DNA of 53,615 nucleotides from Clostridia bacterium (GTDB taxonomy: Bacteria > Bacillota > Clostridia > Oscillospirales > CAG-272): contig JAFXAN010000126.1 of the NCBI GenBank assembly GCA_017517035.1, positions 1-53,615 of the forward strand. The letters run 5' to 3'. Positions 34,831 to 53,615 of the stretch are shown here, piece after piece (positions within the stretch are counted from its first letter, which is position 1; every line of letters starts with the position of its first letter). The notes below the pieces were generated by a model. The model was not told the DNA's origin. It worked only from the letters and a program-made list of their open reading frames with translations, and did no database searches. Both the position numbers and the translations under genes were made by a program.

Positions 34831-34966
34831 AAACGATTACGCGGTTGGCAATATGGTTTTAATAAAAAATTGTTTTCCTTTCTAAAAAATATAATTTGAT
34901 GTTAAAATTGGAGCTGTATTGCCAACATTTGATTATTTTGAATACAAGGTTAATGAGGTAAAAGTA

Positions 34967-35554
34967 ATGACGGTATATATTGTTCGTCACGGACATAGTG
35001 AAGCAAATGAAAAAGGATTTCACTGCGGACAAAATCAAGTCCCTCTCACAAAAAAAGGGGAAGAAGAAGCGGAAAACGTCGGAAAGCTTCTTCGAAAGAT
35101 AAAATTTGACAAGGTTTATTCAAGTGATCTTAACCGTGCGAACACAACCGGAAAAATTGCACTACCCGAATATGAAATCGAGCAGCTTCCTCTCATTCGA
35201 GAGATAAGTGTTGGAAGTATCGATGGCAGAGACAAGAGGGAACTTGAAAGGGAATTGGGTGAACCACTTATAAAGAATAAAAGGATTTTCGATTTCAGAG
35301 ATTATGGCGGAGAAAACACCGAAATGGTACTTGAAAGAGCGAAAAAATTCCTTGATTTGCTTGCTGAGAAAGGCGACGAAACTGTTGCTGTTTTCACCCA
35401 TGAGGTATTTATCAAATCATTATTCAGTGCAGTTCTTGGCGTTTGGGTTGACATACATAATTATATTTGCAACAATTGTTCTGTTATGGTCCTTACATAT
35501 GAAAATGAAGAATGGAAGCTTTTTTCATGGAATATACAAAGTAACAGTATTTAA
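34967..35554 (+). CDS. Histidine phosphatase family protein
   Basis: VRHG, YSSDLNRA, VFTH; RBS gaggt before ATG 34967. Confidence 0.9.
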   Translation: MTVYIVRHGHSEANEKGFHCGQNQVPLTKKGEEEAENVGKLLRKIKFDKVYSSDLNRANTTGKIALPEYEIEQLPLIREISVGSIDGRDKRELERELGEPLIKNKRIFDFRDYGGENTEMVLERAKKFLDLLAEKGDETVAVFTHEVFIKSLFSAVLGVWVDIHNYICNNCSVMVLTYENEEWKLFSWNIQSNSI

Positions 35555-35578
35555 CAGTTTATATTTTTGAGGTATACC

Positions 35579-36430
35579 ATGGATTTGATTTTGATTTTCG
35601 GCTTAATAGTTTTAGCAAGCTCAAAGGTCACTTTGCAAGGAATGTTTGCCAAAAAACATATATTGACTTTAACAGACAGTATTTGCTTTAACGGAATAAT
35701 TTTCCTGTTTTCGGCACTCATTTTTATATATGCCTTGAAATGCTCATTTCCCGTTATTATATTCGGATTTATTTTTGGATTGTTCACTGTACTGTTTCAG
35801 TTGTTTTATATTCAGGCAATGTCTTGCGGCAACGTTTCGCTTGCTGTTTTGATTGTAAATTTGAATATGATAGCACCTATTATAATTTCAATTACTTTTT
35901 TCAATGAAAAGATTGGAATTATAAGAGCTTTGGGTCTTGTGACAGTTATTGTTTCCCTTGTGCTCAATGTTGAAAAGAGCGGGGAAAAAATGAGACGCAA
36001 ATGGCTTGTTTGTTCGCTTCTTGCCTTTGTGTGTAACAGCTGTCTTGCGGTATGTCAACAAATATTCGGCAAAACCGAATGGAAGGCAGAGAGGGTTTCT
36101 TTTGTTGCGTGGAGTTATATAATCGCAACTTTAATTTCTGTTGTATTTTACTTCATTTTTCGTACAGAAAAAGAGAAACAAAAATTCAAAATCAGTCCTT
36201 TGGCAATAGGTTACGGCCTTTGTATCGGTGTGATTTTGGGAGTTTTTCAATTCTTGAATACATTTGCGATTTCTACGATCGAAGCAAGCTTCATGTATCC
36301 TATCTATAATGGCGGAACATTGATTTTCACAACTCTTACAGGTGTGATCTTATTGAAGGATAGACTTTCACTGAAACAGATAATCACATTGATCATAGGT
36401 ATTGTTGGAATTGTTTTGGTGAATTTATAA
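35579..36430 (+). CDS. DMT/EamA-family transporter
   Basis: About 10 TM segments in two repeats; FFNEK and LLKDRL motifs. Confidence 0.85.
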   Translation: MDLILIFGLIVLASSKVTLQGMFAKKHILTLTDSICFNGIIFLFSALIFIYALKCSFPVIIFGFIFGLFTVLFQLFYIQAMSCGNVSLAVLIVNLNMIAPIIISITFFNEKIGIIRALGLVTVIVSLVLNVEKSGEKMRRKWLVCSLLAFVCNSCLAVCQQIFGKTEWKAERVSFVAWSYIIATLISVVFYFIFRTEKEKQKFKISPLAIGYGLCIGVILGVFQFLNTFAISTIEASFMYPIYNGGTLIFTTLTGVILLKDRLSLKQIITLIIGIVGIVLVNL

Positions 36431-36499
36431 ATATAGAAAAATAAAAATTGTAAATTGTGACTTGCCGTTTTTTGGCAGGGTCCATAAAAAGGAGAAAAA

Positions 36500-37561
36500 A
36501 TGGAAAAGATCAAAATTGGCATCATCGGAACCGGTAATATTTCAAGAGCTCATATAAAGAGCTATTTGAAAAATCCTAATGTTGAGCTTTATGCTTTCTG
36601 TGATATTCATGAGGGAAGACTTTATGAGGCAGGTAAGGAATTTGGAATTGAGAGACTTTATACAAATCTTGATGAGATGCTTGCACTCCCTGAGCTTGAT
36701 GCGGTAAGTGTTACAACATGGAACAGCGAGCATGCTCCTTGCACTATCAAGGCACTGAACGCCGGAAAGCACGTTCTTTGCGAGAAGCCTATGGCAACAA
36801 CTGTTGAGGATGCCATTGCTATGAAAGAAGCCGCAGAGAGAAACGGAAAACTTCTTATGATTGGTTTTGTGCGCAGATTTGGAAATGATATGAAGCTTAT
36901 CCGTGATTTCAAGGACAAAGAATATTTCGGAGAAATTTATTATTCAAAGGCTACATATGTTCGTCGCAACGGAAACCCCATGGGTTGGTTTGGAGACAAG
37001 AGCAGAAGCGGGGGTGGGCCGCTTATCGATCTTGGTGTACACGTTATCGACTTCGTTCGTTATGTTCTCGGCAATCCTAAACCTGTATCTGTTTATGGTG
37101 CAACCTTCAAAAAGCTTGGTGCAAGAACAAATATCAAGACACCAAAGGGATATGTAAGCTTCAGTGCAACAAAGGATGATATTTGTGACGTTGAAGACCT
37201 TTCAAGTGCAATGGTAAGATTTGATAACGGAGCTGTTCTTCAAATTGAAGCCGCCTTCAGCCTTAATACCACCTCAAATAAGGGTGAGATTGAGCTTTTC
37301 GGAACAAAGGCAGGCGTTAAGCTTGGTAAAACGCTTACCTTTGCAACCGAGACCAACGATTATCTCTCAAATGTTGAAATTTGCCAAGATGCATCCATCG
37401 ATTTCGACGGAATTTTCAAGGGAGAAATCAACCATTTTGTAGACTGTATTATGAATGGAACAAGATGTCAGAATCCCGCAGAGGACGGAATTGAGATTAT
37501 GAAGATTCTTGCAGCAATTTATCAGTCTGCCGAGACAGGTCATGAGGTAGTTATTGATTAA
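36500..37561 (+). CDS. Gfo/Idh/MocA NAD(P)-dependent oxidoreductase
   Basis: GIIGTGNI, CEKP, GGGPLIDLGVH. Confidence 0.95.
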   Translation: MEKIKIGIIGTGNISRAHIKSYLKNPNVELYAFCDIHEGRLYEAGKEFGIERLYTNLDEMLALPELDAVSVTTWNSEHAPCTIKALNAGKHVLCEKPMATTVEDAIAMKEAAERNGKLLMIGFVRRFGNDMKLIRDFKDKEYFGEIYYSKATYVRRNGNPMGWFGDKSRSGGGPLIDLGVHVIDFVRYVLGNPKPVSVYGATFKKLGARTNIKTPKGYVSFSATKDDICDVEDLSSAMVRFDNGAVLQIEAAFSLNTTSNKGEIELFGTKAGVKLGKTLTFATETNDYLSNVEICQDASIDFDGIFKGEINHFVDCIMNGTRCQNPAEDGIEIMKILAAIYQSAETGHEVVID

Positions 37562-37585
37562 AACAGGAAAATCAGGGGTGAAAAA

Positions 37586-38470
37586 ATGAAAATTTCGGTT
37601 AGTTCGTATTCCTTTAGCAGTTATATCCGCGGGGGAAAGATGACGCAATTTGATACAGTAAAAAAAGCTGCCGAGCTTGGTTTTGAGGGGATTGAATTTA
37701 CTACTCTTGTACCAAATTCATCTCCGACAAAAGAGGAAAAACTGGAATATGCAAGAAAAATAAAGGCAGAGGCTGAAAAGTGTGGAATAGAGATTGTTGC
37801 TTATTGCGTTAGTGCAAGACTTTTTCAGCTTACAAAAGAAGATAATGCTTCGGTATTGAAGGCAGTGCTTGACGAGGTTGATGTTGCGGCAGAGCTTGGC
37901 GTACCTGTTATGCGTCATGATGTCACATGGAGTGTAAAATTCGGTGAAAATGGAGAAAAAACTGTAAGCTTCGACCACCAGCTTCCTTTAATTACGGAAA
38001 ATGTCAGGAAAATTACCGAGTACGCAAAGAAAAAGGGTATTCGTACTTGTAGCGAAAACCACGGCCACGTAGCACAGGACAGTGATAGGATTGAAAGACT
38101 TTATAATGCTGTTGCAGATGAAAATTACGGTATTCTTGTTGATATCGGAAATTTTGCCTGTGTCGATGAAAATCCTATTACTGCGGTTTCAAGGGTTGCT
38201 CCTTATGCTTTTCATGTTCATGCAAAGGATTTTTATAAAACTAATTTTGGAGAAGAAAATACCCGTAGCGGTGGGCATATAACAAGAGCCTGCAATATTC
38301 TTCACGGATGCGTTATCGGTGACGGTATTATCCCCGTCAAGCACTGTATTGCCGTTCTCAAAAAAGCCGGTTATGATGGCTTTGTTTCGATAGAATATGA
38401 GGGGGCTGATGATTGTATTAAGGCACTTGCAAGAGGGCTTAATAATCTCAGGTCATATATCGAAGAATAA
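37586..38470 (+). CDS. Sugar phosphate isomerase/epimerase TIM barrel (AP_endonuc_2 family)
   Basis: GFEGIE, ENHG, DIGNF, HVHAKD, GYDGFVSIEYEG. Confidence 0.92.
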   Translation: MKISVSSYSFSSYIRGGKMTQFDTVKKAAELGFEGIEFTTLVPNSSPTKEEKLEYARKIKAEAEKCGIEIVAYCVSARLFQLTKEDNASVLKAVLDEVDVAAELGVPVMRHDVTWSVKFGENGEKTVSFDHQLPLITENVRKITEYAKKKGIRTCSENHGHVAQDSDRIERLYNAVADENYGILVDIGNFACVDENPITAVSRVAPYAFHVHAKDFYKTNFGEENTRSGGHITRACNILHGCVIGDGIIPVKHCIAVLKKAGYDGFVSIEYEGADDCIKALARGLNNLRSYIEE

Positions 38471-40433: not shown

Positions 40434-41018
40434 TTATGCCTTTACATATTTTTGATTGGAGCTCTTGGGTTTATCGGGCATAGTCAATTTTAATTTCCCA
40501 CTTTCAACAAGAGGGGCGACAATCTGTCCCATAACGTAATTACGGGATTTGCCTGCAAAAGAAATAAGTTCTGCTCTTGAACGAGGAACGGAACAAAATT
40601 CGATAATAGAATCGGTGAGAGAAGCAGACTCGGTGTGATACCCGTTCTTCATAATTACCTTGAACTCACCGTGTCTTACTGAAAACACGGGTACGGGAAG
40701 TCCTGCATTTAGGAACTCCATTCTCATTGTAGGAATGCCGGAATATCTGTTCTCTGTAATATTCAAAAGCTCAAGCATATTAGCGAGTGCGGCATTTCTT
40801 GTTTCGGGATGAACCTTTCCGAGCGCATCAATTGTAATCTTGCCATATAATCCACCGCTATTGGTGATTTCCATGCGGTCACGGTACATTTCTATACGAA
40901 TCGGTATGTTTTCGGTATGAATACTATAATCGCGGTGTACCAATGCATTGAGTATTGCTTCGCGCACTGCCTTGATGGGATATTCATTTTTATCTGCACG
41001 CTTGCCGTTAATATCTAT
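40434..41018 (-). pseudogene. 5'-truncated ATP-binding protein (RecG C-terminal/HATPase_c_4 type, normally with an N-terminal AlbA domain)
   Basis: EYPIKAVREAILNALVHRDY, RN..LA, ENRYSGIP, PDKPKSSNQKY. No RBS or start codon; the frame runs into a promoter. Confidence 0.75.
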
Positions 41019-41047
41019 AATATAACAGAAAATATAGAAATTGTCAA
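41019..41047 (-). promoter_or_regulatory. Orphaned sigma-A promoter abutting the truncated gene
   Basis: TTGACA-17 bp-TATATT with extended TG on the minus strand. Confidence 0.55.
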
Positions 41048-41191
41048 TATATGCACTCTTGTTTTGCCCAATTTTAATTATTGAAAATAGAGTTTGCACA
41101 CAAAAATGCAAGTTTGCACACTCGAGTGCAAATTAATGTGTAAACAAATAGATGGGGCGCAGACAAAACCGCCTGCGTCCATTTTTTGTAT

Positions 41192-41370
41192 TTAATTTGT
41201 ATTGGTCAATGTCTCGATAGCAATTTGCATACCGAGCTTGAATGCATACTCAAATATGGAAGCCTCAGCTAAACTCATATACTCACTCCAGCAGTCATGA
41301 AATTTTTCAAAGGCTTCCTTTTGTTCGTCAGAAAAGCTTTTTTTCGTGGTGACGTGCCATATAGCCTAAT
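41192..41370 (-). pseudogene. DUF6809-like small protein fragment, frameshifted
   Basis: LGYMARHHEK, then a shifted frame SFSDEQKEAFEKFHDCWSEYMSLAEASIFEYAFKLGMQIAIETLTNTN*. Confidence 0.55.
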
Positions 41371-41697
41371 CACATAAAAATAAAAGCACTACACTTTTTT
41401 CTTGTGATTTCTGTCATAATACTTTTACAGAGCAATGCGGTGTCCGGAACCGCAGGGATAAAAAAAGACTGTTCTTGAGACAGTCCTTATCTGTATGCAA
41501 TTTTTAATATTGCATTTTATGTACATGAGTATATATGACATAAATAAATATTTACATATGTAAAACATTTACATAAATAAAAATGGCAAAGTCTAAACAA
41601 ATGATGTGTTTTTTCCCGATATGTGATTTATAAAGCTCTGTATTTTTAGATATGTATTTGTACTTATGTTGAAAAAAGAAAAAGGAGAAAATGTAAA

Positions 41698-42636
41698 ATG
41701 AGCAACAATGTTGGACTTGAAATGAAAGAAAAAGCAAAAAGCGTGAACCTTATCGAATATCTGTTTGAGTATCACTCGGAGCTGATTTCTGAGGTGGGAC
41801 ATAACCGTTTTGTTCACCCTGATCACGATTCATTAGTGATTATGGAAAGAGGGTTCTTCCGTCACTCATCCCCCGATTGCAGAGGTGACCAGATACAGTT
41901 TTTAATGAATTTCCTTCATATGTCATTTCAAGATACGGTTCGTGAGCTTTGTGCACACGCAGACGAGTCGGGTATGAAATTGGAGGAGCATCAGCTTTCC
42001 CGCAATGCAAAGGAAAAGTTTTTTTACTTGCCGTACCCAACAGAAGACATTTATAAGCGTGTATGGGCGTATTTAACAACAAAGAGAGGCATACCTGCCG
42101 AAATAGTTCAAGAACTGTTCGATGCAACCTTGCTATATCAAGCAGAGGAATATGGGAACTGCGTATTTCATTATGACGGTGCAGGGAACTATGCGGAGAT
42201 AGTGGGGACATCAGATATCAAGTTTCGTCGATGTGCCGAAGGCTGTGCACCCGGAGCATATTGGGCTTGCGGAAATATAAATGGCGACACAGCATATGTA
42301 TGCGAGTCCGCAATTGACGCAGTAAGCCTTATGGCATTATATCGCAAATATTGTGATGGCGATCCTGCTTTTATATCTATAGGCGGGCTTAAAGACATTT
42401 CAATCAACAATGTACGAACCAAATACGAGAATGTCATTATCGCAGTAGATCGAGACGATGCAGGAGATTTCTGCTACAGTAAGCATAATGATCTCCCACG
42501 CATTCTTCCACCAAACATTCACGGAAAAAACGGAGAAAAGCTGAAGGATTGGAATGATGTTATAAGATACTGCGACAATGAAGAAAAAGTCAAAAAAAGT
42601 ATCGAGATATTTGCCGATATGGGCTTACCGTTTTAA
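41698..42636 (+). CDS. DUF3991/TOPRIM (primase-like) protein of mobile elements
   Basis: HPDHDSL, GDQIQFL, AYLTTKRGI, VCESAIDAVS, AVDRDDAG, KDWND. Confidence 0.85.
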   Translation: MSNNVGLEMKEKAKSVNLIEYLFEYHSELISEVGHNRFVHPDHDSLVIMERGFFRHSSPDCRGDQIQFLMNFLHMSFQDTVRELCAHADESGMKLEEHQLSRNAKEKFFYLPYPTEDIYKRVWAYLTTKRGIPAEIVQELFDATLLYQAEEYGNCVFHYDGAGNYAEIVGTSDIKFRRCAEGCAPGAYWACGNINGDTAYVCESAIDAVSLMALYRKYCDGDPAFISIGGLKDISINNVRTKYENVIIAVDRDDAGDFCYSKHNDLPRILPPNIHGKNGEKLKDWNDVIRYCDNEEKVKKSIEIFADMGLPF

Positions 42637-42914: not shown

Positions 42915-43850
42915 TCATTTATTTTCATTATGTTCCTTCAAAGCACCGGGGCCATCCTTATAATTTTTAATTCGTTCTCTGATTTCGCTCGGAGAGAACC
43001 CCTCTTCCTTTGCGAACATACGGCTGAAATAGCTTGGATTATCATATCCGAGAGAATAGGCGATTTCAGCAATCGAAAGCTCCGATGTTCGCAGAAGCTC
43101 AATGGCGTTTGAGATCTTATTTTTTGTGATATACTGAATGGGAGTTATTCCCAGATGCTTTCTGAAAAGGCGTATCATGTGCTGAGGTGAAAGATGGCAA
43201 AGCTCGCACAGTTGTTCTGTGGAGATTTTTTTATTATAATTCTGTTGAATAAATGAAAGTGCCTGACGTAGCGGTGGCGGTATGTCAGGGGGCACCGTGC
43301 TGCTTGCGGTGATTGAAATGACGTTAATTGATACCGAGGATAAAAATTCAACTAACTTCAGCGAGATAAGCAGCGGTGAAACATAGGTTGCTGAAATTTT
43401 TTTTTGTGGGATTTGACGGAGAAGTGTGCAAAGCTCATCAAAACCATCTCCTGTGTTTCCATGATGATTTATATAAAGGTGAGTTGGCAGAAGCGAAAGC
43501 CTTTTTTGAACAGAAAGCGATGCATTTTTGTTAATTATCTCCTTAAGCTCGTTTTCTGCTTCCTTGTTTGAGAGAGAATCAATGGTAGACCTTAGCATAA
43601 AATGAACATAAAGGAGTTTACAGCTTTTGTCATTTACAGGACGGCGAATATATTCTTTGCTTGGGGGTATGAGTATATAATCCCCCTTGCTTAATGTTAA
43701 ATTATTATCATCTATATCTATTCTGCAAGCCCCCTCGGTTATCAAAATGAGAATTGCGCGTCTGTCTGCACATCTCCATAGTGTTTTCCTTTCTATTTCA
43801 TATGTTTCTTCGATTTCCGGAAGTGTTTGCAGAGAGAGTTTATAAACCAT
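42915..43850 (-). CDS. AraC/XylS-family regulator
   Basis: Cupin-like N-terminus; double HTH ending LGYDNPSYFSRMF; RBS gggggg before ATG 43850. Confidence 0.93.
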   Translation of the reverse strand: MVYKLSLQTLPEIEETYEIERKTLWRCADRRAILILITEGACRIDIDDNNLTLSKGDYILIPPSKEYIRRPVNDKSCKLLYVHFMLRSTIDSLSNKEAENELKEIINKNASLSVQKRLSLLPTHLYINHHGNTGDGFDELCTLLRQIPQKKISATYVSPLLISLKLVEFLSSVSINVISITASSTVPPDIPPPLRQALSFIQQNYNKKISTEQLCELCHLSPQHMIRLFRKHLGITPIQYITKNKISNAIELLRTSELSIAEIAYSLGYDNPSYFSRMFAKEEGFSPSEIRERIKNYKDGPGALKEHNENK

Positions 43851-43880
43851 AGTTCCCCCCCATTTCGGTTGCTTTTTGAA

Positions 43881-43977
43881 AATGTTAAAATTGTGCATAT
43901 GAATGTTCAAATTCGATATTTACAAAATTTATTTTTTAACCTAAAATAATTATAACAGATTTTTCTGTTTATGTAAA
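43881..43977. promoter_or_regulatory. Overlapping opposed promoters with a tandem AraC-type repeat
   Basis: aatgttaaaatt (43881) and aatgttcaaatt (43902); plus-strand TTTACA-17-TAAAAT (43919-43947); minus-strand TTTACA-17-TATAAT (43977-43949). Confidence 0.65.
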
Positions 43978-44007: not shown

Positions 44008-45102
44008 ATGTCAGCAAAAAAATGGAAGGTCGCAGTTGTTGGCTGTGGCACGTTCGCAAACGATCAGTATTTCCCCAATATAGCCAAGGAGGCAAATGCA
44101 GTCTGCGTTGCAGCTTGCGATATCGTACCCGAAAGAGCGCAGAGCGCTTGCGAGAAATACGGTATTCCCGAATGGTATACAAGTGTATATGAAATGTTAG
44201 AAAAGTGCGATTTTGATATCGCCATCGATGCAACCTCAATTCAGGCGCACCATGAGGTCAATATGGCGATTCTCGGGGCGGGCAAGCATCTTATCAGCCA
44301 AAAACCCGCTGCTCCCACGGTCGAATTGCTTACCGAGCAGATAGAGCTTGCAAAAAATAAGGGTGTTAAATTTGTGTGCGTACCGATTCATCCCATGAGA
44401 TTTGACCTTGCTGTTGCAAAGCAGATGATAGCAGATGGAGCCATCGGAGAGCTTTCATATATCAAGTGTAATGTTGCTCATGGAGGCCCTAACTATTTCC
44501 AGTACCGCGATGCTGACCCAACGTGGTTCTTCGAGGACGGTGCAGGAGCACTTGTTGATATGGGTGTTCACGGTATTCAGATAGTGACACATATGTTTGG
44601 CCCGGCAAAGAAGATCAGCTGTCTTGCGGCGGTTACAACACCCGAGAGAACGGTACGTTCAGGCAAATTTGACGGCAAAAAGATAAAGGCAGACAAGATT
44701 CCCGATCAGTATTTTATTAACATAACCTTTGCAAACGGAAAGATAGGCTTCATTGACACAGGATTTTCACAGAAGGCTTCAAAACAGCCTCAGCTTGAGA
44801 TCTACGGTAGCGAGGGAACAATTTCTCTTACATCAGGATATATGCAAAATCCTATGCCGAGCGTCTATATGGACGCACCCGAACGTGGAATCCGAGGTTG
44901 GGTAGAGCCTATGACATGGACGAGTATTCCGAAGAAGCTCATCAGCCAGTGCTGCTGTCTCCGTGATATAATCGAAGCCATTGAGGGTGAATGTGATCCT
45001 ATGCTGACACCCGAGCACGCAAGACACGTGCTTGAGATCATGTGTAAGATCCCCGAGGCGGTAAAAACGGGTGCTACCGTTGAGCTTGAAACAACATTTT
45101 AA
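44008..45102 (+). CDS. Gfo/Idh/MocA oxidoreductase (QKP variant)
   Basis: VVGCG, SQKP, GALVDMGVH. Confidence 0.92.
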   Translation: MSAKKWKVAVVGCGTFANDQYFPNIAKEANAVCVAACDIVPERAQSACEKYGIPEWYTSVYEMLEKCDFDIAIDATSIQAHHEVNMAILGAGKHLISQKPAAPTVELLTEQIELAKNKGVKFVCVPIHPMRFDLAVAKQMIADGAIGELSYIKCNVAHGGPNYFQYRDADPTWFFEDGAGALVDMGVHGIQIVTHMFGPAKKISCLAAVTTPERTVRSGKFDGKKIKADKIPDQYFINITFANGKIGFIDTGFSQKASKQPQLEIYGSEGTISLTSGYMQNPMPSVYMDAPERGIRGWVEPMTWTSIPKKLISQCCCLRDIIEAIEGECDPMLTPEHARHVLEIMCKIPEAVKTGATVELETTF

Positions 45103-45114
45103 GAGGTGATTCGA

Positions 45115-46194
45115 ATGGATAAATTAAGAGTTGCATTTTTCGGAGCAGCACATCCCCATGTGGATGCCATTATGGAAACAATAGTGAACAATTCCGAGGA
45201 TTTTGAAATTATCGGGTTTGCCGAGGTTTCCTTTCCACCGAGAGACCCGTTTACATATGACGAAAAACACAGCATAATTGTTGGCACCTTCAAATGTCCC
45301 GAATATGACGATTGGAAAACTCTTGCTTCTCTTAATGTGGACCTTGCGGTGGTAAATTCGGACAATGCGGCAAGAGAGGAGATATGCTGTTATCTGCTTT
45401 CAATGGGAATAAATGTTCTTGACGAAAAGCCTATGGCGATGAATTATGCCGCGGCAAAGAGAATGTGCGATATTGCAAAGGAAAACGGTGTTCATATGCT
45501 CACAAACTGGCCTATTGCATGGTTTCCTGCGTTCCGTCTTGCCAAAAAGCTTCTTGACGAGGGCAGAATAGGAAAGCTGATGAAGGTCACATACAGAAGC
45601 CCCGCAACATGGGGGCCGTTCTCATACAGAGAATTTGTAAAATATCCAACAGAGCATTTTAAGGATAGCTGGTGGTATAAGGCTGAATACGGAGGCGGTT
45701 CTATCCTTGACTATGCTTGCTACGGTGCGATACTTTCCACATGGATGTTCGGAAAAAGAGCCGAAAGAGTTTGCTGCATGACAAAGCAGTTTGTAACAAC
45801 ATTTTCAGATGTTGAGGACTGGAGCGCAATGCTTCTCGATTTCGGTGACGGAGTTGGAATGATCGAAGGCTCGTGGGCAACATATAACAGTGGAGAGGTT
45901 CCTTCGGGGCCTATACTTCACGGAACGGAGGGAACTATCGTCTGCGAGAGACATTCGACAATAGTTAAGGTTTATGAAGGCAAGAGTCACACCCCCGTAG
46001 AGCCTACGGAGATTATAGATGCAGGCATTGCAGACCAGTCAACAGCACTTGGCAAACATCTTGCAAGAGTGATTCGAGGCGAGGAAGAGCCGGTGGATAT
46101 GCTCAGCACCGAGGTTAATCTTTCGGTGGTAGCCGCTCTTGATGCGGGAATAAAATCCGCAAAAACAGGAAAAACAGTAGAAGCAGAAAAATAA
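45115..46194 (+). CDS. Gfo/Idh/MocA oxidoreductase
   Basis: GAAHPH, DEKP, GGGSILDYACY. Confidence 0.9.
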   Translation: MDKLRVAFFGAAHPHVDAIMETIVNNSEDFEIIGFAEVSFPPRDPFTYDEKHSIIVGTFKCPEYDDWKTLASLNVDLAVVNSDNAAREEICCYLLSMGINVLDEKPMAMNYAAAKRMCDIAKENGVHMLTNWPIAWFPAFRLAKKLLDEGRIGKLMKVTYRSPATWGPFSYREFVKYPTEHFKDSWWYKAEYGGGSILDYACYGAILSTWMFGKRAERVCCMTKQFVTTFSDVEDWSAMLLDFGDGVGMIEGSWATYNSGEVPSGPILHGTEGTIVCERHSTIVKVYEGKSHTPVEPTEIIDAGIADQSTALGKHLARVIRGEEEPVDMLSTEVNLSVVAALDAGIKSAKTGKTVEAEK

Positions 46195-46213: not shown

Positions 46214-47332
46214 ATGAGTAAGCTCAGAGTTGCCGTAATAGGTACCGGAATGATAGCAAACAGTGCACATTTTCCTGCACTTAACGATCTTAGAAAAGAA
46301 GGACTTATCGAGGTTGTAGGCGTTGCGGACATCCGTGAGGAGGTTGCGGCAGAAACTGCAAAGAGACACGATGTTCCGAATTATTATAAAGACCCCCAGA
46401 AGATGCTTGACGAGCTTAAACCCGATTTTGTTGCGGTATGCACACCAAATATGTACCATAAGGAATGGACAATAAAGGCTCTTAAAGCCGGAGCACACGT
46501 TGCCTGCGAGAAGCCTATGGGACTATCTGTCTCCGATGTTAAGGAGATGTGGCAGACTGCAAAGGACTGCGGAAAGATGCTTTTCCCTTGTCAGTGCATG
46601 AGATGGAGAAATTATATGCAGCAGTCAAAGATTCTTGTGGATAGCGGTGAGCTTGGAGATGTTTATTTCTCGGATATCGAGTTCATCAGAAGAATTGGAA
46701 TCCCTACGTGGGGTATGTTCCATATGAAGGAGCATAATTTCGGTGGCCCGTTCTGCGATCTCGGAGTTCATCTTATCGACTCACTTCTATGGATTGTTGG
46801 AGATAAGAAGGTCGAGGCGGTTTCGGGAAGTGCATATACAAAAATCGCAAATCAGGGGGAGGATATTCTTCTCAGCATTGCGGAGAGCGGCGCATATTCG
46901 GGCGCATTCACCCCAAGAAAATATGATTATAAGGAATTTAACGTTGAGGAATTTTCAACAGGTTTTATGCGTCTTGAAGGAGGCATGAGCGTTAATTTTA
47001 AGTTCTCCTGGGCGCTCAATCTTCCCACAACAAATCTTGATATGGTAATCTGCGGTGATAAGGGCGGTCTTTCGGTAAATAAGGAAAAACTCTATAAGAA
47101 TATCGGCAAATTCCAGTCGGAATGTGATATGAAATGGTTTGATAACGGTGCATATAAGGGAGTTGCATTCGAGCAGCACAGATATATGTACAGAAATATC
47201 ATAAACACACTTGCAGGTAAGGAAGAATACCTCATAAAAGAGCATCAGAATATTGAGGTCACAAAGGCAATAGAGTGCTTCTATAAGTCTGCAGAGCTCC
47301 GTCGCGAGGTAAGAGTGGAGGAGCTTAAATGA
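46214..47332 (+). CDS. Gfo/Idh/MocA oxidoreductase
   Basis: VIGTGMI, CEKP, GGPFCDLGVH. Confidence 0.93.
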   Translation: MSKLRVAVIGTGMIANSAHFPALNDLRKEGLIEVVGVADIREEVAAETAKRHDVPNYYKDPQKMLDELKPDFVAVCTPNMYHKEWTIKALKAGAHVACEKPMGLSVSDVKEMWQTAKDCGKMLFPCQCMRWRNYMQQSKILVDSGELGDVYFSDIEFIRRIGIPTWGMFHMKEHNFGGPFCDLGVHLIDSLLWIVGDKKVEAVSGSAYTKIANQGEDILLSIAESGAYSGAFTPRKYDYKEFNVEEFSTGFMRLEGGMSVNFKFSWALNLPTTNLDMVICGDKGGLSVNKEKLYKNIGKFQSECDMKWFDNGAYKGVAFEQHRYMYRNIINTLAGKEEYLIKEHQNIEVTKAIECFYKSAELRREVRVEELK

Positions 47333-48426
47333 GTATTCGTGCCGTAATTTGCGGCTGTGCCCATATGCACGTAAATGAGGTCGCCCTTTACATAAGCGAG
47401 CAAACATCAACAGAGCTTTGCGGTGTTGCGGATATCGCTCCCGAATTTCCCGAAAATACCGATAAAAGATATACCCGTGCATGGAATTTCAAAAATGTTG
47501 TTGAAAAATATTCTGCAAAGCCTTTTGATGATTACAAAAAAATGCTTGATGAGATAAAGCCCGATGTTGCTTACCTTCTCTGCGAGAACTATCGCAAGGC
47601 AGAAATAGCAGAAGAAATTGCAAGGCGCGGTATTAACGTCATCATCGAAAAGCCTATGGCAACAACGGCTTCAGAGGCTCGAAAAATCGTTTCATTAAAA
47701 GAAAAATACGGAGTTGAGATATACGTCAACTGGCCCGTTACTTGGCGTAGATACATCCGTGAGATGAAGGCAACTGTTGATAGCGGAAGGCTTGGAAAGA
47801 TTCAGAAGCTTCGATATCTCAACGGTCATACAGGACCTCTGGGCAAGGGCGCAAAGCACCGCGGCGTAAGCGCAAAGGCTGAAGAAATGACAGACGAGGA
47901 AAGAGGACGTACTTGGTGGCACCAAAAGAAGTGCGGCGGCGGTGCGTATCTTGATATTCTTTGTTACGGTTGCTATTTCAGCAGATGGCTGTTTGGAAAG
48001 CTTCCCGTTGATATTATGTCTGTTGGCGAAAATCTAAACACTCCTTTTGGTGACACAGAAGATAATATTGCTGCAATTCTACGATTTGAGGATGGATTTG
48101 CGGTAGCCGAGGGCACGTGGACTACTCCCAGAAGAAGAATGCCCACAGGCCCCGAGATCATTTGCTCCGACGGTGTTGTCTGGTGTGACGGAGTTCCGGA
48201 TGGCGAGGCATTTGTTGCGGCTTCCGACATTTACGGAAATGACATTGACGCAGATCATCAGAAGGACGACGAGCACTTTCGCAATATGCCTTGGCACTAT
48301 GCTGCACATGTGAAGCAGGGAATGCCCATTCACGAAACACTTACAGCAGAGTTCAATGCGGATGTGGTTGCCATGATCGAAGCGGCTGAACGCTCAAATG
48401 CGAGCCGCAAAGCAGAAAAAGTGTGA
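47329..48426 (+). CDS. Gfo/Idh/MocA oxidoreductase
   Basis: GCAHMH, IEKP, GGGAYLDILCY. Confidence 0.9.
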   Translation: MSIRAVICGCAHMHVNEVALYISEQTSTELCGVADIAPEFPENTDKRYTRAWNFKNVVEKYSAKPFDDYKKMLDEIKPDVAYLLCENYRKAEIAEEIARRGINVIIEKPMATTASEARKIVSLKEKYGVEIYVNWPVTWRRYIREMKATVDSGRLGKIQKLRYLNGHTGPLGKGAKHRGVSAKAEEMTDEERGRTWWHQKKCGGGAYLDILCYGCYFSRWLFGKLPVDIMSVGENLNTPFGDTEDNIAAILRFEDGFAVAEGTWTTPRRRMPTGPEIICSDGVVWCDGVPDGEAFVAASDIYGNDIDADHQKDDEHFRNMPWHYAAHVKQGMPIHETLTAEFNADVVAMIEAAERSNASRKAEKV

Positions 48427-49223
48427 TGAATAAAGAAAATATAAGCGCACGAGTCACCGAAATAGAAAGATTTTCGGTGCACGACGGTCCCGGGATACGT
48501 ACTGTGGTCTTTCTCAAAGGCTGTCCTTTAAATTGTGCTTGGTGTCATAACCCCGAGTGTATCTCATTTGAAAAACAAACCTTGGTATATACGGAAAAAT
48601 GTATCGGCTGCGGCAAATGCGATCAGGGGTGCTATTCGGGCGCAAGAGTTGAGTGCGGAAAAGAAATGACCGTTGATCAGGTGATGGAAGAGGTGCTCCA
48701 GGATCAGATATATTATGGAGAGCACGGAGGTCTGACTATTTCAGGCGGTGAGCCTTTGGCACATAGAGAATTTACAATGGCTCTCATTCGCGCATGCCGA
48801 GAAAAAAATATAAAGGTAGGTATCGAGACCTCGCTTTACCGTTTTGACGAAGAGTTGCTTTCTTCGCTCGACCTGATAATGGCCGATATGAAGATATTTG
48901 ATTGTGATATTCATCGCAAATGGGTAGGAGTCGGAAACGAGGAGATAAAAAACAATCTCTGCCGAGCAAACGAACTTGGTATACCCATGATTGTTCGCAC
49001 ACCTGTGATCTGTGGAATAAATGACAACACGGAAAACGTAAAGCGAACAGCTGAATTTTTGCGTGAGCTTAAAAACGTAACGTCCTATGAGCTTTTGCCT
49101 TATCATCCATTGGGAGTTTCCAAGGCAGAGGCACTTGGGATAAAGCAAACAGAATTTAAAACACCCTCACAAAGTCAAATGGAGGAACTTAATAAATATG
49201 CTGACATATCAAGACAGACTTGA
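48423..49223 (+). CDS. Glycyl-radical enzyme activase (radical SAM)
   Basis: HDGPGIRTVVFLKGCPLNCAWCHNPE, SGGEP, ELLPYH; short CIGCGKCDQGC insert. Confidence 0.95.
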   Translation: MMNKENISARVTEIERFSVHDGPGIRTVVFLKGCPLNCAWCHNPECISFEKQTLVYTEKCIGCGKCDQGCYSGARVECGKEMTVDQVMEEVLQDQIYYGEHGGLTISGGEPLAHREFTMALIRACREKNIKVGIETSLYRFDEELLSSLDLIMADMKIFDCDIHRKWVGVGNEEIKNNLCRANELGIPMIVRTPVICGINDNTENVKRTAEFLRELKNVTSYELLPYHPLGVSKAEALGIKQTEFKTPSQSQMEELNKYADISRQT

Positions 49224-51414
49224 CGCTATGCGTCGTACCAAGATCGAGCATACGCTGGCAAAAAAAGAACAGAACGGATATACCGATCTTGACGATTTCG
49301 GTACTGTTCCGCTACCCGAGGACTATTATGTTGAGCCTTGGTACAACAGCGAGAACGGTAGCTTTTATGGACTTGAAGGTATGAGCGAGAATTTCTGCAG
49401 AGTAATGGCTGCACATCCGGCCTATGTCGATCCGATGGAAATGCTTTGCGGCAGATGGCGTGATATGCTTGTGAACTATCGCGGAGATATACATTATCTT
49501 CCCAATTGGATAAAAAAGAACGAAAAGCTTTATAACTTTATCGCAAGTGGTGCAACAGCACAGTGGAGCAAGCGTTGGGACGAAAAACGGTTTCCATACG
49601 ACGATCTCAAGCCTCTCCAGAAAAAGTACAATATTCAGACCGGTATTGACGGAGATGCTCATTTTGCCTGCGATTACCGCATTGGTCTTGAGCTTGGCTT
49701 TGGCGGACTTCTTGACAAAATAGAAAAATATCGCAAGATCAATACGGATAAAAAGGACTTTTATGATGCCGAAGAGCGTTGTGTTCGTGCCATTATTGAT
49801 TTTATTGACAGACATATAGAAAAGATTCGGGAGATGATTCCGTTAGAGGATCGGCCCGAGATCAAGGAAACTCTTTTGAAGATGCTTTCCGTATGTGAAA
49901 ATATTCGTCTGGGAGCGCCCAAGACTTTTCATGAGGCTTGTCAATGGGTAAGCTTTTTCAATTGTGCAGCACGAGTTTTCACTCGTGACGGTGCAGGTTT
50001 CCAGCTGGATACTATCTTGTATCCTTACTATGAAAACGATATAAAGAGCGGTGAGCTTGATGACGAAAGAGCAAAATTCCTCATCGCAAATCTTCTGCTC
50101 ATTGATCCTCATTACTATCAAATCTCCGGTGTTGATGCCGAGGACCGCGATCTGACAAACCATCTGTCCTATCTTATTCTTGATGCGGCAGATTCTATCA
50201 ATATTTCCTGTAATCTTACGGTCAGAGTTCATGAAAATTGCGATCAGTCGTTTCTGCACCGTGCGGTGGAATATTTGTTTAAGAATAAAAACGGTTGGCC
50301 TCGTTTTTGCGGTGATAAGAACCTATGCGAGGGCTATATGCGCAACGGTGTGGACAAACAGACAGCCAGAGAGCGTATTGCTGTAGGTTGTAATTGGATG
50401 TGTGTTCCCGGTAAGGAATTTCCAATGAACGATACGGTCAAGATCAACGTGGCAAAGGTTCTTGAAGTAGCACTTGAGGAAATGAAAAATGAAAACGAAA
50501 GAAGCGCAGAATACCTCTATTCCATTTTCGAAAAGCATCTTAAAAAAGCTATTGAGGTCACCGCAGCAGGTGTAAACCACCATCTTGACCACGTTCACGA
50601 CGTAACTCCGGAGCTTATTATGAACCTTATGTTCACCGGATCCATTGAAAAGGGACTCGATGCCTCTCAATGTGCCGAGCTGTTCACGGTGGGGGTTGAC
50701 GGAGCAGGTCTTGCTGTTGTTGCCGACTCTTTTGGCGCTATCTCTACAAGAATTGAAGAAGAAAAGGCTCTTTCTTGGGATCAGCTCTATGAGGCTCTTG
50801 AAAGTGATTTTGCGGACGAGCGAATTCGCTTGATGCTCAATTCTTCGCCCAAATATTGTCATGGAAACACTGTGTCCGATGAGTGGGCGAAACGTTTGAC
50901 GAAAACTTGGACAAAGCTTGTAAAAGCTCAGAAAATGCCCAATGGCAGACAGCTTGTTCCCGGTTGGTTCTCCTGGGCGCGCAGTATTGAATACGGGTCT
51001 ACCGTCGGTGCTATGCCTAACGGAAGAAAAGCATACGAGCCAATCTCCCACGGTGCAAATCCCAATCCGCATTTCAGAGTTGACGGGGCGGTCACTGCAC
51101 AGTCGAACGGAATTGCATCCGTTCAGTGCGGATATGGTAATACGGCTCCGCTTCAGATCGAGTTTGACCCTAAAATCACAATGGAGCAGGGCGGTGTTGA
51201 CATCGTTCTTGACTTCATCAAGGCTCATATTGCAAGCGGTGGAACACTGATAAATATTAACATTCTCGATTCGGAAAGGCTCATGGAGGCCCACAAGGAT
51301 CCCACGCTTCATCCCGATCTTGTGGTGCGTGTGACCGGATTTACGGCATATTTTGCCTCACTGTCACCCAAATTCCGTCAGCTTGTTGTTGATCGTTTCC
51401 TTGAAGGAATGTAA
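49198..51414 (+). CDS. Glycyl-radical enzyme of unknown substrate (PFL superfamily)
   Basis: VVRVTGFTAYF (Gly714), AVGCNWMC (Cys398), GAMPNGRKA; adjacent activase. Confidence 0.92.
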   Translation: MLTYQDRLDAMRRTKIEHTLAKKEQNGYTDLDDFGTVPLPEDYYVEPWYNSENGSFYGLEGMSENFCRVMAAHPAYVDPMEMLCGRWRDMLVNYRGDIHYLPNWIKKNEKLYNFIASGATAQWSKRWDEKRFPYDDLKPLQKKYNIQTGIDGDAHFACDYRIGLELGFGGLLDKIEKYRKINTDKKDFYDAEERCVRAIIDFIDRHIEKIREMIPLEDRPEIKETLLKMLSVCENIRLGAPKTFHEACQWVSFFNCAARVFTRDGAGFQLDTILYPYYENDIKSGELDDERAKFLIANLLLIDPHYYQISGVDAEDRDLTNHLSYLILDAADSINISCNLTVRVHENCDQSFLHRAVEYLFKNKNGWPRFCGDKNLCEGYMRNGVDKQTARERIAVGCNWMCVPGKEFPMNDTVKINVAKVLEVALEEMKNENERSAEYLYSIFEKHLKKAIEVTAAGVNHHLDHVHDVTPELIMNLMFTGSIEKGLDASQCAELFTVGVDGAGLAVVADSFGAISTRIEEEKALSWDQLYEALESDFADERIRLMLNSSPKYCHGNTVSDEWAKRLTKTWTKLVKAQKMPNGRQLVPGWFSWARSIEYGSTVGAMPNGRKAYEPISHGANPNPHFRVDGAVTAQSNGIASVQCGYGNTAPLQIEFDPKITMEQGGVDIVLDFIKAHIASGGTLININILDSERLMEAHKDPTLHPDLVVRVTGFTAYFASLSPKFRQLVVDRFLEGM

Positions 51415-51431: not shown

Positions 51432-52712
51432 TTGGAACATATTAAGTACGAAAAATATTTGACAGTAAAGAAAAAATATGATGTGATCGTGTGTGGAGGC
51501 GGTGTTGCAGGTGTTGCGGCAGCCGTAAGCTCTGCTAAAAACGGATTGTCAACTCTTCTTCTTGAAAAAAGCAATATTCTCGGCGGTCTTGGTACACTCG
51601 GACTTATAAATCTGTTTGTTCCTATGTGTAATGGACGTGGAAAGCAAATAATTTTTGGGCTTGCCGAAAAATGGCTTCGGAAAAGTGCGGAGCTTGGCTG
51701 GGATACCATTCCCTTTGAGTGGAAAAACGGTGAACCTAAAGAAGAGACCAAGGTTCGGTACATACAAAGATATTCTCCGACGATTTTCGCATATCAGCTT
51801 ACAGAAGAGATAACAAAAAGCGGTGCAGATATTCTTTTTGATTGCATGGCGATCGATCCTGTAATGGAGGGCAATGTTTGCCGTGGTGTCATAACCGAAA
51901 GCAAAGGCGGGACCGAGTTTTACGGATGCCGAATACTGATCGATACCACGGGAGATTGTGATGTTTTGCGACGCGGTGGCATACCGTGTGAAAACGGAGA
52001 AAATTTCTTTTCCTTCTTTACAAAAATGGTGGATCTCGAAAGCTGTAAAAAAGCGGTTGAAATGGGGGATATACGATATTTGTATAAGGATCTCAGCGGA
52101 GGCAGTATCAACCTTTTTGGTGACGGTCAACCTGATGACATACCGCGCTGGTCAGGACTTTCCGCAGAAAATGTGACTGATTATATCGTTCGAAATCATC
52201 TTTTGATTCTCGAAAAACTGAAAAACAGCGATAGAAAAACTCGAGATATCGTCACCTCGCCCGGGATGCCTCAGTTCAGAACCACCTGCCATATTAGGGG
52301 CGATTATTCTCTGAAGCTTTCCGACGCATACCGCCATTTTCATGATTCAATATGTGCGATTAACGATTTTGAGCATAGAGATCATCTTTTTGAGATTCCG
52401 TTTCGTTGTCTCGTTAGAAGTGACTATCCCAATATAATCACCGCAGGCAGAAGCGCGGATGGCACGGGCTACGGTTGGGATCTGCTTCGTGTAATACCTC
52501 CGGCTATCCTTACAGGACAAGCAGCAGGGGAAGCTGTTTCACTTGCTCTTAAGACAGGGAAAAATATTGCTGAGCTTGATATAAAGGCTCTGCAAAATAC
52601 CCTTGAAAAGAACGATGTAATGATTCACTTTCCTGATGAATATATACCCGAAGACAGAACGGTAAATATACACGGTAAAAATGCCGCAGAAATTGATGGC
52701 GGTCATATGTAA
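51432..52712 (+). CDS. FAD-dependent oxidoreductase, paralog of 33598-34830
   Basis: YDVIVCGGGVAG; shares FVPMCNGRGKQIIFGLAEKWLR and LRVIPPAILTGQAAGEA with the paralog. Confidence 0.9.
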   Translation: MEHIKYEKYLTVKKKYDVIVCGGGVAGVAAAVSSAKNGLSTLLLEKSNILGGLGTLGLINLFVPMCNGRGKQIIFGLAEKWLRKSAELGWDTIPFEWKNGEPKEETKVRYIQRYSPTIFAYQLTEEITKSGADILFDCMAIDPVMEGNVCRGVITESKGGTEFYGCRILIDTTGDCDVLRRGGIPCENGENFFSFFTKMVDLESCKKAVEMGDIRYLYKDLSGGSINLFGDGQPDDIPRWSGLSAENVTDYIVRNHLLILEKLKNSDRKTRDIVTSPGMPQFRTTCHIRGDYSLKLSDAYRHFHDSICAINDFEHRDHLFEIPFRCLVRSDYPNIITAGRSADGTGYGWDLLRVIPPAILTGQAAGEAVSLALKTGKNIAELDIKALQNTLEKNDVMIHFPDEYIPEDRTVNIHGKNAAEIDGGHM

Positions 52713-52821: not shown

Positions 52822-53527
52822 TACAATTGATAGGTGACAAATAAAAAAGGAAATAGCGACCAGATGTGATATAATGGTAATAACCACAAAACCAAAAAAT
52901 CACAAAGGAGCTATTTCCAATGAATATTATAACATCAGAAGCCCACTTTCGTCAACGGGTATTGAAATATTCGTTAAAAAATGGAGTGACAGCAGCGAGC
53001 ATACGGTTCAAAAGAAGCAGACAAGCGATATACGAATGGAAAAGGAAGTGGGACGGAAAAAGTTGGCACAGCTTAGTAGAAAAGAGCCATCGTCCACATC
53101 ATCATCCAAATGAACACACGGCAGAAGAGAAAGAAATGATCTTACGCCGTTATCCCCGATACAAAGACGATATGATGCTTCTTTGGAATTCATTGCGCAA
53201 GAGCGGGTATACACGAAGCTATACAAGCTTGGTAAGGGTAGTGCGCAAATATGGGTGCAGCCGAAGATTAAAAAGCGTACAGCAAGGAAAAATAAGCCTT
53301 ATACAAGAGCAGAATATCCCGGCCAAAAGGTACAGGTGGACGTAAAGTTTGTACCCTCTTATTGCGTTACACATGGGCAAAAATTCTATCAGTACACCGC
53401 AGTTGATGAATGTACTCGCTGGACATACAGAGAAATGTATGAGGAACACAGCACAGACGGTTCGGTGCGTTTCCTTGTGAATTTAATAAAAAGCGGTCCT
53501 TTTCCAATAAGAGAAATACAAACGGAC
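52807..53527 (+). mobile_element. IS481-like insertion sequence, partial
   Basis: Candidate TGT left end at 52807; transposase downstream; right end not seen. Confidence 0.65.
52920..53527 (+). pseudogene. Frameshifted, truncated DDE (rve) transposase
   Basis: HTH plus SHRPHHHPN in the first frame; from ~53252 a second frame reads YPGQKVQVDVKFVP...YQYTAVDECTR...IQTD; similarity then ends. Confidence 0.85.
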
Positions 53528-53615
53528 GATGACAGACCGTTTGACCGATTTGCAAAAGCGGACATATTGGTCGTCGTCAACGCACGGATATGGGCTTGGT
53601 GTCAGATGTCCGATG

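Follow-up and report, generated by a model that had tools for sequence, protein, structure and literature searches.

To our knowledge, YbiW and PflD are the only characterized glycyl radical enzymes (GREs) that act on a sugar ring. The reaction of these enzymes (8id7, 8id0, and 8yjo in the Protein Data Bank [PDB]) is the ring opening of 1,5-anhydroglucitol-6-phosphate and 1,5-anhydromannitol-6-phosphate. The glutamates of their Cys-X-Glu (CXE) motifs, Glu443 and Glu433, hydrogen-bond the C2 hydroxyl, as described in section 5.7 of a June 2026 review (PMC13450708). Here, we examined a 53,615-nucleotide stretch of DNA (the window) from a Clostridia bacterium (GenBank assembly GCA_017517035.1, contig JAFXAN010000126.1, positions 1 to 53,615), which encodes a 738-amino-acid (aa) GRE in which a tryptophan, W400, takes the place of this glutamate. 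The GRE of the window shares with YbiW and PflD the same fold (Foldseek template modeling [TM] score, 0.82 to 0.84; phmmer E value to 8yjo, 2.3e-48) and a thiyl cysteine on the equivalent loop, but it differs from them in W400 and is only about 20% identical. Further, in contrast to YbiW and PflD, its partners are Gfo/Idh/MocA oxidoreductases and ATP-binding cassette (ABC) importers, and the loci that we scanned revealed no kinase.

Other described enzymes are also related to this GRE. Glycerol dehydratase (1r8w; E value, 1.1e-49) and propanediol dehydratase (5i2g and 9rco) are among the best fold matches, but they carry Glu435/Glu440 at the position of W400, and the GRE of the window is about 50 to 100 residues shorter and does not reach the cutoff of the corresponding family model, TIGR01774. 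The best sequence match is PFL2 of Archaeoglobus fulgidus (2f3o; E value, 1e-51, over residues 146 to 733), which has GCVE where our GRE has GCNW; its function is described as debated in section 7 of the review (PMC13450708). PFL and TdcE belong to the same superfamily, and relatives of our GRE are publicly annotated as "formate acetyltransferase." However, PFL has two adjacent loop cysteines, whereas the GRE of the window has a C-x3-C arrangement with an unconserved second cysteine, and its match to PFL covers only the C-terminal third (E value, 1.4e-15). The sections of the review used here distinguish seven GRE classes and contain no Cys-X-Trp (CxW) loop, with "Trp" appearing only as a channel residue of MASS. 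In the same sections, all characterized eliminases and isomerases retain CXE, two loop cysteines are found only in PFL/TdcE, and mutation of the Cys-loop Glu kills CutC and IslA (PMC13450708). These descriptions agree with the background of an earlier note on this DNA, made from the sequence alone, which gave GCxE as the loop of eliminases and adjacent cysteines as that of PFL.

The gene and the two catalytic loops of its product are located as follows.

49198..51414, + strand: 738-aa GRE of the CxW (Trp-loop) clade, recognized from the open reading frame (ORF), Pfam, hidden Markov models (HMMs), an AlphaFold2 (AF2) model, and a tree

50386..50403, + strand: Cys loop G397-C398-N399-W400-M401-C402, with the W400 codon TGG at 50395-50397

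51328..51342, + strand: Gly loop R711-V-T-G714-F, with the G714 codon at 51337-51339

The earlier note had reported a GCNWMC loop within 50380..50410, a protein of 738 aa, and an intact RVTGF loop, all of which we confirmed with a script and on the DNA: GCNWMC forms residues 397 to 402 of the ORF and RVTGF residues 711 to 715. These positions identify C398 as the thiyl cysteine and G714 as the radical glycine. Pfam recognized both the PFL-like domain (PF02901; 324.5 bits; cutoff, 24.3) and the Gly_radical domain (PF01228; 40.4 bits; cutoff, 22.2). C398 and G714 were invariant in all 113 aligned GREs, and C398 was the only one of the 16 cysteines in the protein that was conserved (48/48 Trp-type and 52/52 Glu-type rows). 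The Gly loop reads RVTGF-x6-L-x4-R-x2-V-x2-R, and its sole departure from the GRE fingerprint given in the review, RVxG[FWY]x6-8[FL]x4Qx2[IV]x2R (PMC13450708), is R727 (51376-51378), which replaces Gln. For this and the other clade-specific residues, we compared 24 Trp-type with 52 Glu-type representatives; position 727 was Arg in 11 and Gln in 12 of the 24 Trp-type proteins, and Gln in 50 of the 52 Glu-type proteins. Aminoacyl radical enzymes (AAREs) are defined in section 7 of the review by Ala, Ser, or Thr at the position of the radical Gly (PMC13450708), and our GRE retains G714. As far as its sequence can tell, the 738-aa product is an intact, oxygen-sensitive GRE under selection, with predicted activity.

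The tryptophan falls on the catalytic glutamate. In phmmer alignments to 2f3o, 1r8w, and 8yjo, which were the solved relatives read residue by residue and which all have GCVE, the G-C-N-W of our GRE aligns over G-C-V-E and W400 lies on the Glu of CXE, as the earlier note had proposed. The loop C398-N-W400 thus lacks the CXE of GRE 1,2-eliminases and isomerases. The GCNW motif was kept in all 120 of the best homologues (75 to 100% identity; 727 to 744 aa), and RVTGF was kept in 119 of them. We also collected 80 related loci from species-representative genomes, of which 76 yielded a GRE ORF. RVTGF was present in all 76 and GC[NHS]W in 67; in the remaining 9, which had shifted starts or truncated ORFs, the loop was missed by the regular-expression window, and they do not count as negatives.

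To place the substitution among more distant GREs, we used an HMMER scan of 1.84 billion cluster representatives, which gave 4,047 hits. From the best 150 of these hits (50%-identity representatives), 92 full-length proteins were aligned with MAFFT (--retree 2). CxW was found in 24 of the 92, at identities to the GRE of the window down to about 27%. The Trp-type loops followed the pattern GC[N/H/F/Q/P/G]W[M/Y/F/T/S/C/W], and the others were mostly GC[V/I]E. In a FastTree phylogeny of 93 rows, the 28 Trp-type rows made up one side of a branch with a Shimodaira-Hasegawa-like support of 100, with the 65 other rows on the other side, and none of 500 label shuffles scored equally low in the clade test. 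Judged from these sequences, the exchange of Glu for Trp is no private oddity of this protein and is fixed across a deep monophyletic CxW clade. The clade is frequent in human and animal gut Clostridia, Christensenellales, and spirochaetes, and its cultured carriers include Clostridium leptum DSM 753, Neglectibacter timonensis, Hominenteromicrobium mulieris, and Chakrabartyella piscis.

Neither structure nor family models assigned the GRE to a described function. The AF2 model, built from the 113-sequence alignment, had high confidence (pLDDT, 93.3; pTM, 0.93), and Foldseek matched it to propanediol and glycerol dehydratases, PflD, YbiW, CutC, and HypD (TM score, 0.81 to 0.85; probability, 1.00; about 20% identity), with no single GRE eliminase or isomerase standing out. 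The earlier note had considered that a structural model might place another cysteine at the Gly714 loop; indirectly, the evidence favors C398, the invariant cysteine, which lies on a hairpin and coincides in the alignments with the catalytic cysteine of solved GREs. No NCBIfam model reached its cutoff. The best score was that of TIGR01774, the PFL2/glycerol dehydratase subfamily (278.6 bits; cutoff, 678.2), followed by the equivalog models of HypD, CutC, HpsG, and HpfG (157 to 208 bits; cutoffs, 1,000 or more), those of the HPAD and IAD decarboxylases (93 to 108 bits; cutoffs, 1,100 to 1,150), and the PFL model TIGR01255 (58.1 bits; cutoff, 994.2). BSS (E value, 1.6e-14) and MASS (E value, 8.2e-18) matched only the C-terminal part of the GRE in phmmer, and no small-subunit gene of the X-succinate-synthase type was noticed among operon ORFs of at least 80 aa. 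None of the 36 matched PDB sequences exceeded about 23% identity to our GRE, a distant member of the CxW clade (P0166) had no close solved structure either, and a search of the ESM Atlas returned generic PFL-like clusters only. The earlier note had left room for GCNW to be already assigned to a characterized GRE class; we found no such assignment in the structures, NCBIfam models, and papers searched, and no characterized CxW GRE in the literature, where a recent closed-access report is possible.

Several other residues distinguish the CxW clade, two stretches of which are given here.

50416..50433, + strand: E407 to D412, acidic residues that are specific to the clade and lie on the descending arm of the Cys loop, from representative counts

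50611..50613, + strand: codon of E472, a candidate relocated base, invariant in the Trp clade and near-absent outside it

E472 was present in 24/24 Trp-type but only 2/52 Glu-type representatives, D412 in 24/24 versus 14/52, E407 in 22/24 versus 9/52, and T713, which precedes the radical Gly, in 22/24 versus 7/52. H155, in contrast, was common to both groups (21/24 Trp-type and 49/52 Glu-type). In the half of the CxW clade that contains our GRE, residue 399 is a polar one (N, H, or Q); in Glu-type proteins, this residue is mostly Val. Like glycerol dehydratase, the GRE of the window keeps two residues outside the loop motif: in the phmmer alignment, D412 falls on Asp447, which we take to have a mechanistic role in that enzyme, and H155 falls on His164. 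According to section 5.6.1 of the review, the latter protonates the leaving hydroxyl (PMC13450708). The earlier note had inferred different chemistry from the tryptophan. With the equivalents of His164 and Asp447 retained, the GRE may nevertheless carry out an elimination-like reaction in which the base either has moved or is unnecessary.

The genes around the GRE point to sugars. The GRE is preceded by four oxidoreductase genes and an activase gene, with a regulator gene on the opposite strand.

42915..43910, - strand: divergent AraC-family regulator (Pfam HTH_AraC, HTH_18, and AraC_binding)

44008..45102, + strand: Gfo/Idh/MocA oxidoreductase 1 (Pfam GFO_IDH_MocA and C-terminal domains)

45106..46194, + strand: Gfo/Idh/MocA oxidoreductase 2 (Pfam)

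46214..47332, + strand: Gfo/Idh/MocA oxidoreductase 3, a homologue of DgpA-like glycoside/sugar 3-oxidoreductases (phmmer)

47329..48426, + strand: Gfo/Idh/MocA oxidoreductase 4 (Pfam)

48423..49223, + strand: GRE-activating enzyme of the radical S-adenosylmethionine (SAM) type (TIGR02494, 273.5 bits, cutoff 174.35; Radical_SAM and Fer4_12)

51432..52712, + strand: flavin adenine dinucleotide (FAD)-dependent oxidoreductase, PF12831, last gene of the cluster (Pfam, 174.4 bits)

The third oxidoreductase (Gfo 3) matched DgpA (7xr9) with an E value of 1.2e-52 over residues 1 to 362 of 372 in phmmer, that is, over its full length. DgpA is the C- and O-glycoside 3-oxidoreductase of gut Dorea strains (7xr9 and 9m3d); two papers describe how it oxidizes the sugar of such glycosides at C3 (PMC11239390 and PMC10539306). 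Gfo 3 homologues were found in 10 close-clade loci at 77 to 90% identity and in 4 other loci (L011, L015, L017, and L024) at 39 to 43%. In 9 of the 10 close-clade loci, Gfo 3 was more conserved than the adjoining GRE, the exception being L002 (77% versus 87%). The closest solved relative of Gfo 1 was DgpA1 (9m3d; E value, 7.7e-25), and its homologues in related loci had 53 to 73% identity. Those of Gfo 2 were 6nor (E value, 5.1e-15) and the 1,5-anhydro-D-fructose reductase 2glx (E value, 1.1e-10). Gfo 4 was found directly 5' of the activase in most close-clade loci, at about 47 to 57% identity (83% in L002). The activase gene of the window overlaps the start of the GRE gene by 26 nucleotides, and AraC genes hold an equivalent position in related loci. 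We found no open-access literature linking DgpA to a glycyl radical. The C-glycoside deglycosidase pathway, in which DgpA acts with DgpB/C, was also considered for this operon and rejected, as a DgpA homologue alone was found, with no DgpB/DgpC-like partner.

This gene neighborhood recurred across the clade. An activase was encoded within 3 kb of the GRE in 73 of the 76 related loci. Among the 43 well-flanked loci, defined as those with at least 5 kb upstream and 3 kb downstream, a Gfo/Idh/MocA gene was found within 7 kb in 34. Recurrent neighbors also included xylose-isomerase-like TIM barrels, some of them fused to Gfo and adjoining the activase and GRE, as well as sugar ABC importers, the glycoside hydrolases (GHs) GH38 and GH26, mannose-6-phosphate-isomerase-like cupins, and AraC or GntR/LacI regulators. 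For instance, the locus of Clostridium leptum DSM 753 reads AraC, solute-binding protein, permease, permease, Gfo, Gfo, TIM barrel, Gfo, activating enzyme, and GRE, followed by housekeeping genes. The FAD-dependent oxidoreductase was tried as an obligatory partner of the GRE and rejected; PF12831 was found within 7 kb in only 5 of the 43 well-flanked loci and is an occasional partner.

The source genome itself provided a control for this linkage. Its 3.07 Mb contain 20 PFL-like GRE ORFs, of which 3 are Trp-type: the GRE of the window, a copy with 76% identity on contig C4, and a copy with 44% identity on contig C35. The genome has 25 Gfo/Idh/MocA ORFs. Eight of them are found no more than 7 kb from one of the Trp-type GREs, and the other 17 GREs have none at that distance, so that 3/3 Trp-type GREs have Gfo neighbors versus 0/17 of the others. 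This contrast ties the Gfo link to the Trp-type enzymes in particular, rather than to the GREs of this organism at large.

On balance, we think it probable, though by no means assured, that the window encodes a functional CxW GRE that acts on a sugar-ring substrate prepared by the Gfo enzymes and cleaves a C-O bond with altered acid/base machinery. By analogy with the family mechanism, the adjoining radical-SAM activase would place the radical on G714, from which it would be passed to C398. The C398 thiyl radical would then take a hydrogen from the ring of a sugar substrate, which the Gfo/Idh/MocA dehydrogenases of the operon would supply or prepare. Because one of these is a homologue of the DgpA-type sugar/glycoside 3-oxidoreductases, we infer that the substrate is likely a keto-hexose, an anhydro-hexose, or a ring derived from a glycoside. 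Like GRE eliminases and isomerases, the enzyme would next cleave the C-O bond beside the radical, either dehydrating the substrate or opening its ring. W400 replaces the Glu that normally deprotonates the substrate hydroxyl, and this deprotonation may be either needless, if the radical carbon has a carbonyl next to it from the start, or carried out by other residues. Candidates for this role are E472 and D412, both invariant in the clade, along with E407, His155, which is retained, and the polar residue 399. W400 itself may form a hydrophobic, stacking, or shielding wall for the ring. The earlier note had suggested a sugar stacking in this way, and a sugar substrate is plausible given the operon and the Gfo/Idh/MocA linkage across the related loci. 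The gene probably performs an undescribed anaerobic step of sugar breakdown in animal-gut Clostridia.

It is important to note that four observations weigh against this reading. First, no Gfo gene was found within 7 kb in 9 of the 43 well-flanked loci (L018, L022, L030, L035, L050, L058, L066, L076, and L079). Second, E472 sits at the N terminus of a helix, off the barrel strands, according to DSSP on the AF2 model and may not reach the pocket. Third, the TIM barrels associated with the paralogous and C. leptum operons matched no DgpB/DgpC, only hydroxypyruvate-isomerase- or ketose-3-epimerase-like proteins. Finally, the tree that defines the clade was made with FastTree only, is midpoint rooted, and was drawn from the 150 representatives most similar to our GRE.

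A more specific version of the sugar-ring reading is offered tentatively, as a possibility that we would not yet bet on. The CxW enzymes might form an eighth functional GRE class and give gut anaerobes a radical branch in their pathway of glycoside/sugar 3-oxidation. In this scheme, a 3-keto or 1,5-anhydro hexose would be produced by DgpA-like and other Gfo enzymes (one possible source being the "hexose enediolone" released from 3-keto-glycosides), and the GRE would open or dehydrate the unphosphorylated ring without a Cys-loop base, relying on Trp stacking and a carbonyl-stabilized radical.

Of the other explanations, the one that survives best, which we nevertheless regard as rather unlikely, is a radical reaction on a sugar that does without hydroxyl deprotonation, such as epimerization or isomerization, C-C cleavage, or decarboxylation of a sugar acid. 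The clade-wide loss of an essential Glu speaks for such chemistry, as do the shift of the Gly loop to T713 and of residue 399 to a polar residue; in addition, the sections of the review used here describe whole GRE clades as still lacking validation (PMC13450708). However, nothing positive favors any particular reaction of this kind, and the retained equivalents of His164 and Asp447 are typical of enzymes that cleave C-O bonds.

Retention of these two residues fits an ordinary 1,2-eliminase of the diol/polyol dehydratase type, in which the base has moved to E472 or E407, the substrate is a small hydroxylated molecule, and the Gfo enzymes, instead of preparing that molecule, act later in the pathway on the resulting aldehyde or ketone. 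This explanation is also favored by glycerol and propanediol dehydratases being the top matches in sequence and fold and by the new invariant acidic residues. We consider it unlikely, as the score to TIGR01774 remains well under its cutoff and as we saw no genes for microcompartments or aldehyde dehydrogenases in the scanned loci. Moreover, the neighboring genes encode sugar importers, glycoside hydrolases, and as many as four oxidoreductases of the sugar type.

The second cysteine at position 402, to which the earlier note had drawn attention, is indeed present in the GRE of the window, four residues past C398, and together with the "formate acetyltransferase" annotation of relatives it could suggest a PFL-like formate or keto-acid lyase that uses C398 and C402. 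This cysteine did not hold up as a feature of the family. Position 402 was Cys in only 5/24 Trp-clade representatives, without enrichment over the Glu-type proteins (5/52); among the 67 related loci it was Cys in 18, Ser in 46, and Ala in 3, and it was Ala in 4 of the 120 close homologues. Because C402 is not conserved, being mostly Ser or Ala, we rejected a PFL-like Cys pair, and with the two cysteines not adjacent and the score to TIGR01255 a small fraction of its cutoff, a lyase of this kind is very improbable. Least credible of all is a decaying or noncatalytic paralogue in a GRE-rich genome, which the excess of GRE ORFs (20) over activase-like ORFs (7) and an insertion sequence (IS)-like element just downstream might suggest but which sits poorly with a full-length open frame, intact C398 and G714, an adjoining activase of its own, and hundreds of same-length homologues at 75 to 98% identity.

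Returning to the reading of a CxW GRE that acts on a sugar ring, a clade that is both large and old and in which Trp is fixed must either supply the base elsewhere or run base-free chemistry, and either outcome would extend the mechanistic rules of the superfamily. Since the clade is tied to sugar importers and to dehydrogenases that form 3-keto sugars, its reaction is probably an unrecognized anaerobic route of carbohydrate or glycoside catabolism. The cultured carriers make the function of CxW enzymes directly testable. New here are the DgpA homology of Gfo 3, the within-genome contrast of 3 versus 17 GREs, the list of E472, D412, E407, and T713, and the nonconservation of C402.

The GRE complement of the source genome was diverse. 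Most of its GREs are 657 to 764 aa long, with Cys loops reading GCVEP, GCNQI, GCYEP, GCNEP, TCVEV, GCNMI, GCYEC, GCYNF, GCQES, ACWEN, GCWEN, ACCTF, GCTES, and others. The ORFs are spread over contigs C4, C8, C21, C28, C35, C42, C51, C65, C72, C111, C121, C122, C125, C126, C141, and C142, and one further GRE gene is seemingly split on C42 (524 and 225 aa). Only seven ORFs of the genome matched an HMM of the operon's activase, so that most of the GREs have no adjoining activase.

The Trp-type paralogue on C4 (C4:15256-17472; L089, 9257-11473) has a GCNWMC loop and lies in the order AraC, TIM barrel, Gfo, Gfo, Gfo, GRE, BspA-type leucine-rich repeat (LRR) protein, GH26, and LRR protein. It has no activase of its own and may rely on one from another locus. 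At the C35 locus (C35:3056-8974; L090) and in L044 (5954-7852), fusions of a xylose-isomerase-like TIM barrel to Gfo (660 and 632 aa) lie directly 5' of the activase and the Trp-type GRE. A conserved protein of 249 to 270 aa that belongs to no Pfam family is encoded 3' of the GRE in L090, L044, and L070. In L018 (7044-9182) and L022 (7061-9208), a second GRE (713 to 716 aa; about 22% identical; GCGEY and RVGGF loops) lies directly 5' of a shared activase and the Trp-type GRE; these two-GRE loci are both among those without Gfo within 7 kb.

Within the window, the GRE operon is flanked by remnants of mobile elements. Upstream, at 40434-42636, these comprise a HATPase_c_4/Fic-like ORF and a DUF3991/Toprim primase-like ORF; downstream, at 52920-53615, an IS-like element with an HTH_28 ORF and an overlapping transposase-like ORF runs off the end of the contig. 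Farther upstream, at 33598-38470, there is a second sugar-oxidation cluster, which consists of a PF12831 FAD oxidoreductase, a histidine phosphatase, an EamA transporter, a Gfo/Idh/MocA oxidoreductase, and a xylose-isomerase-like TIM barrel.

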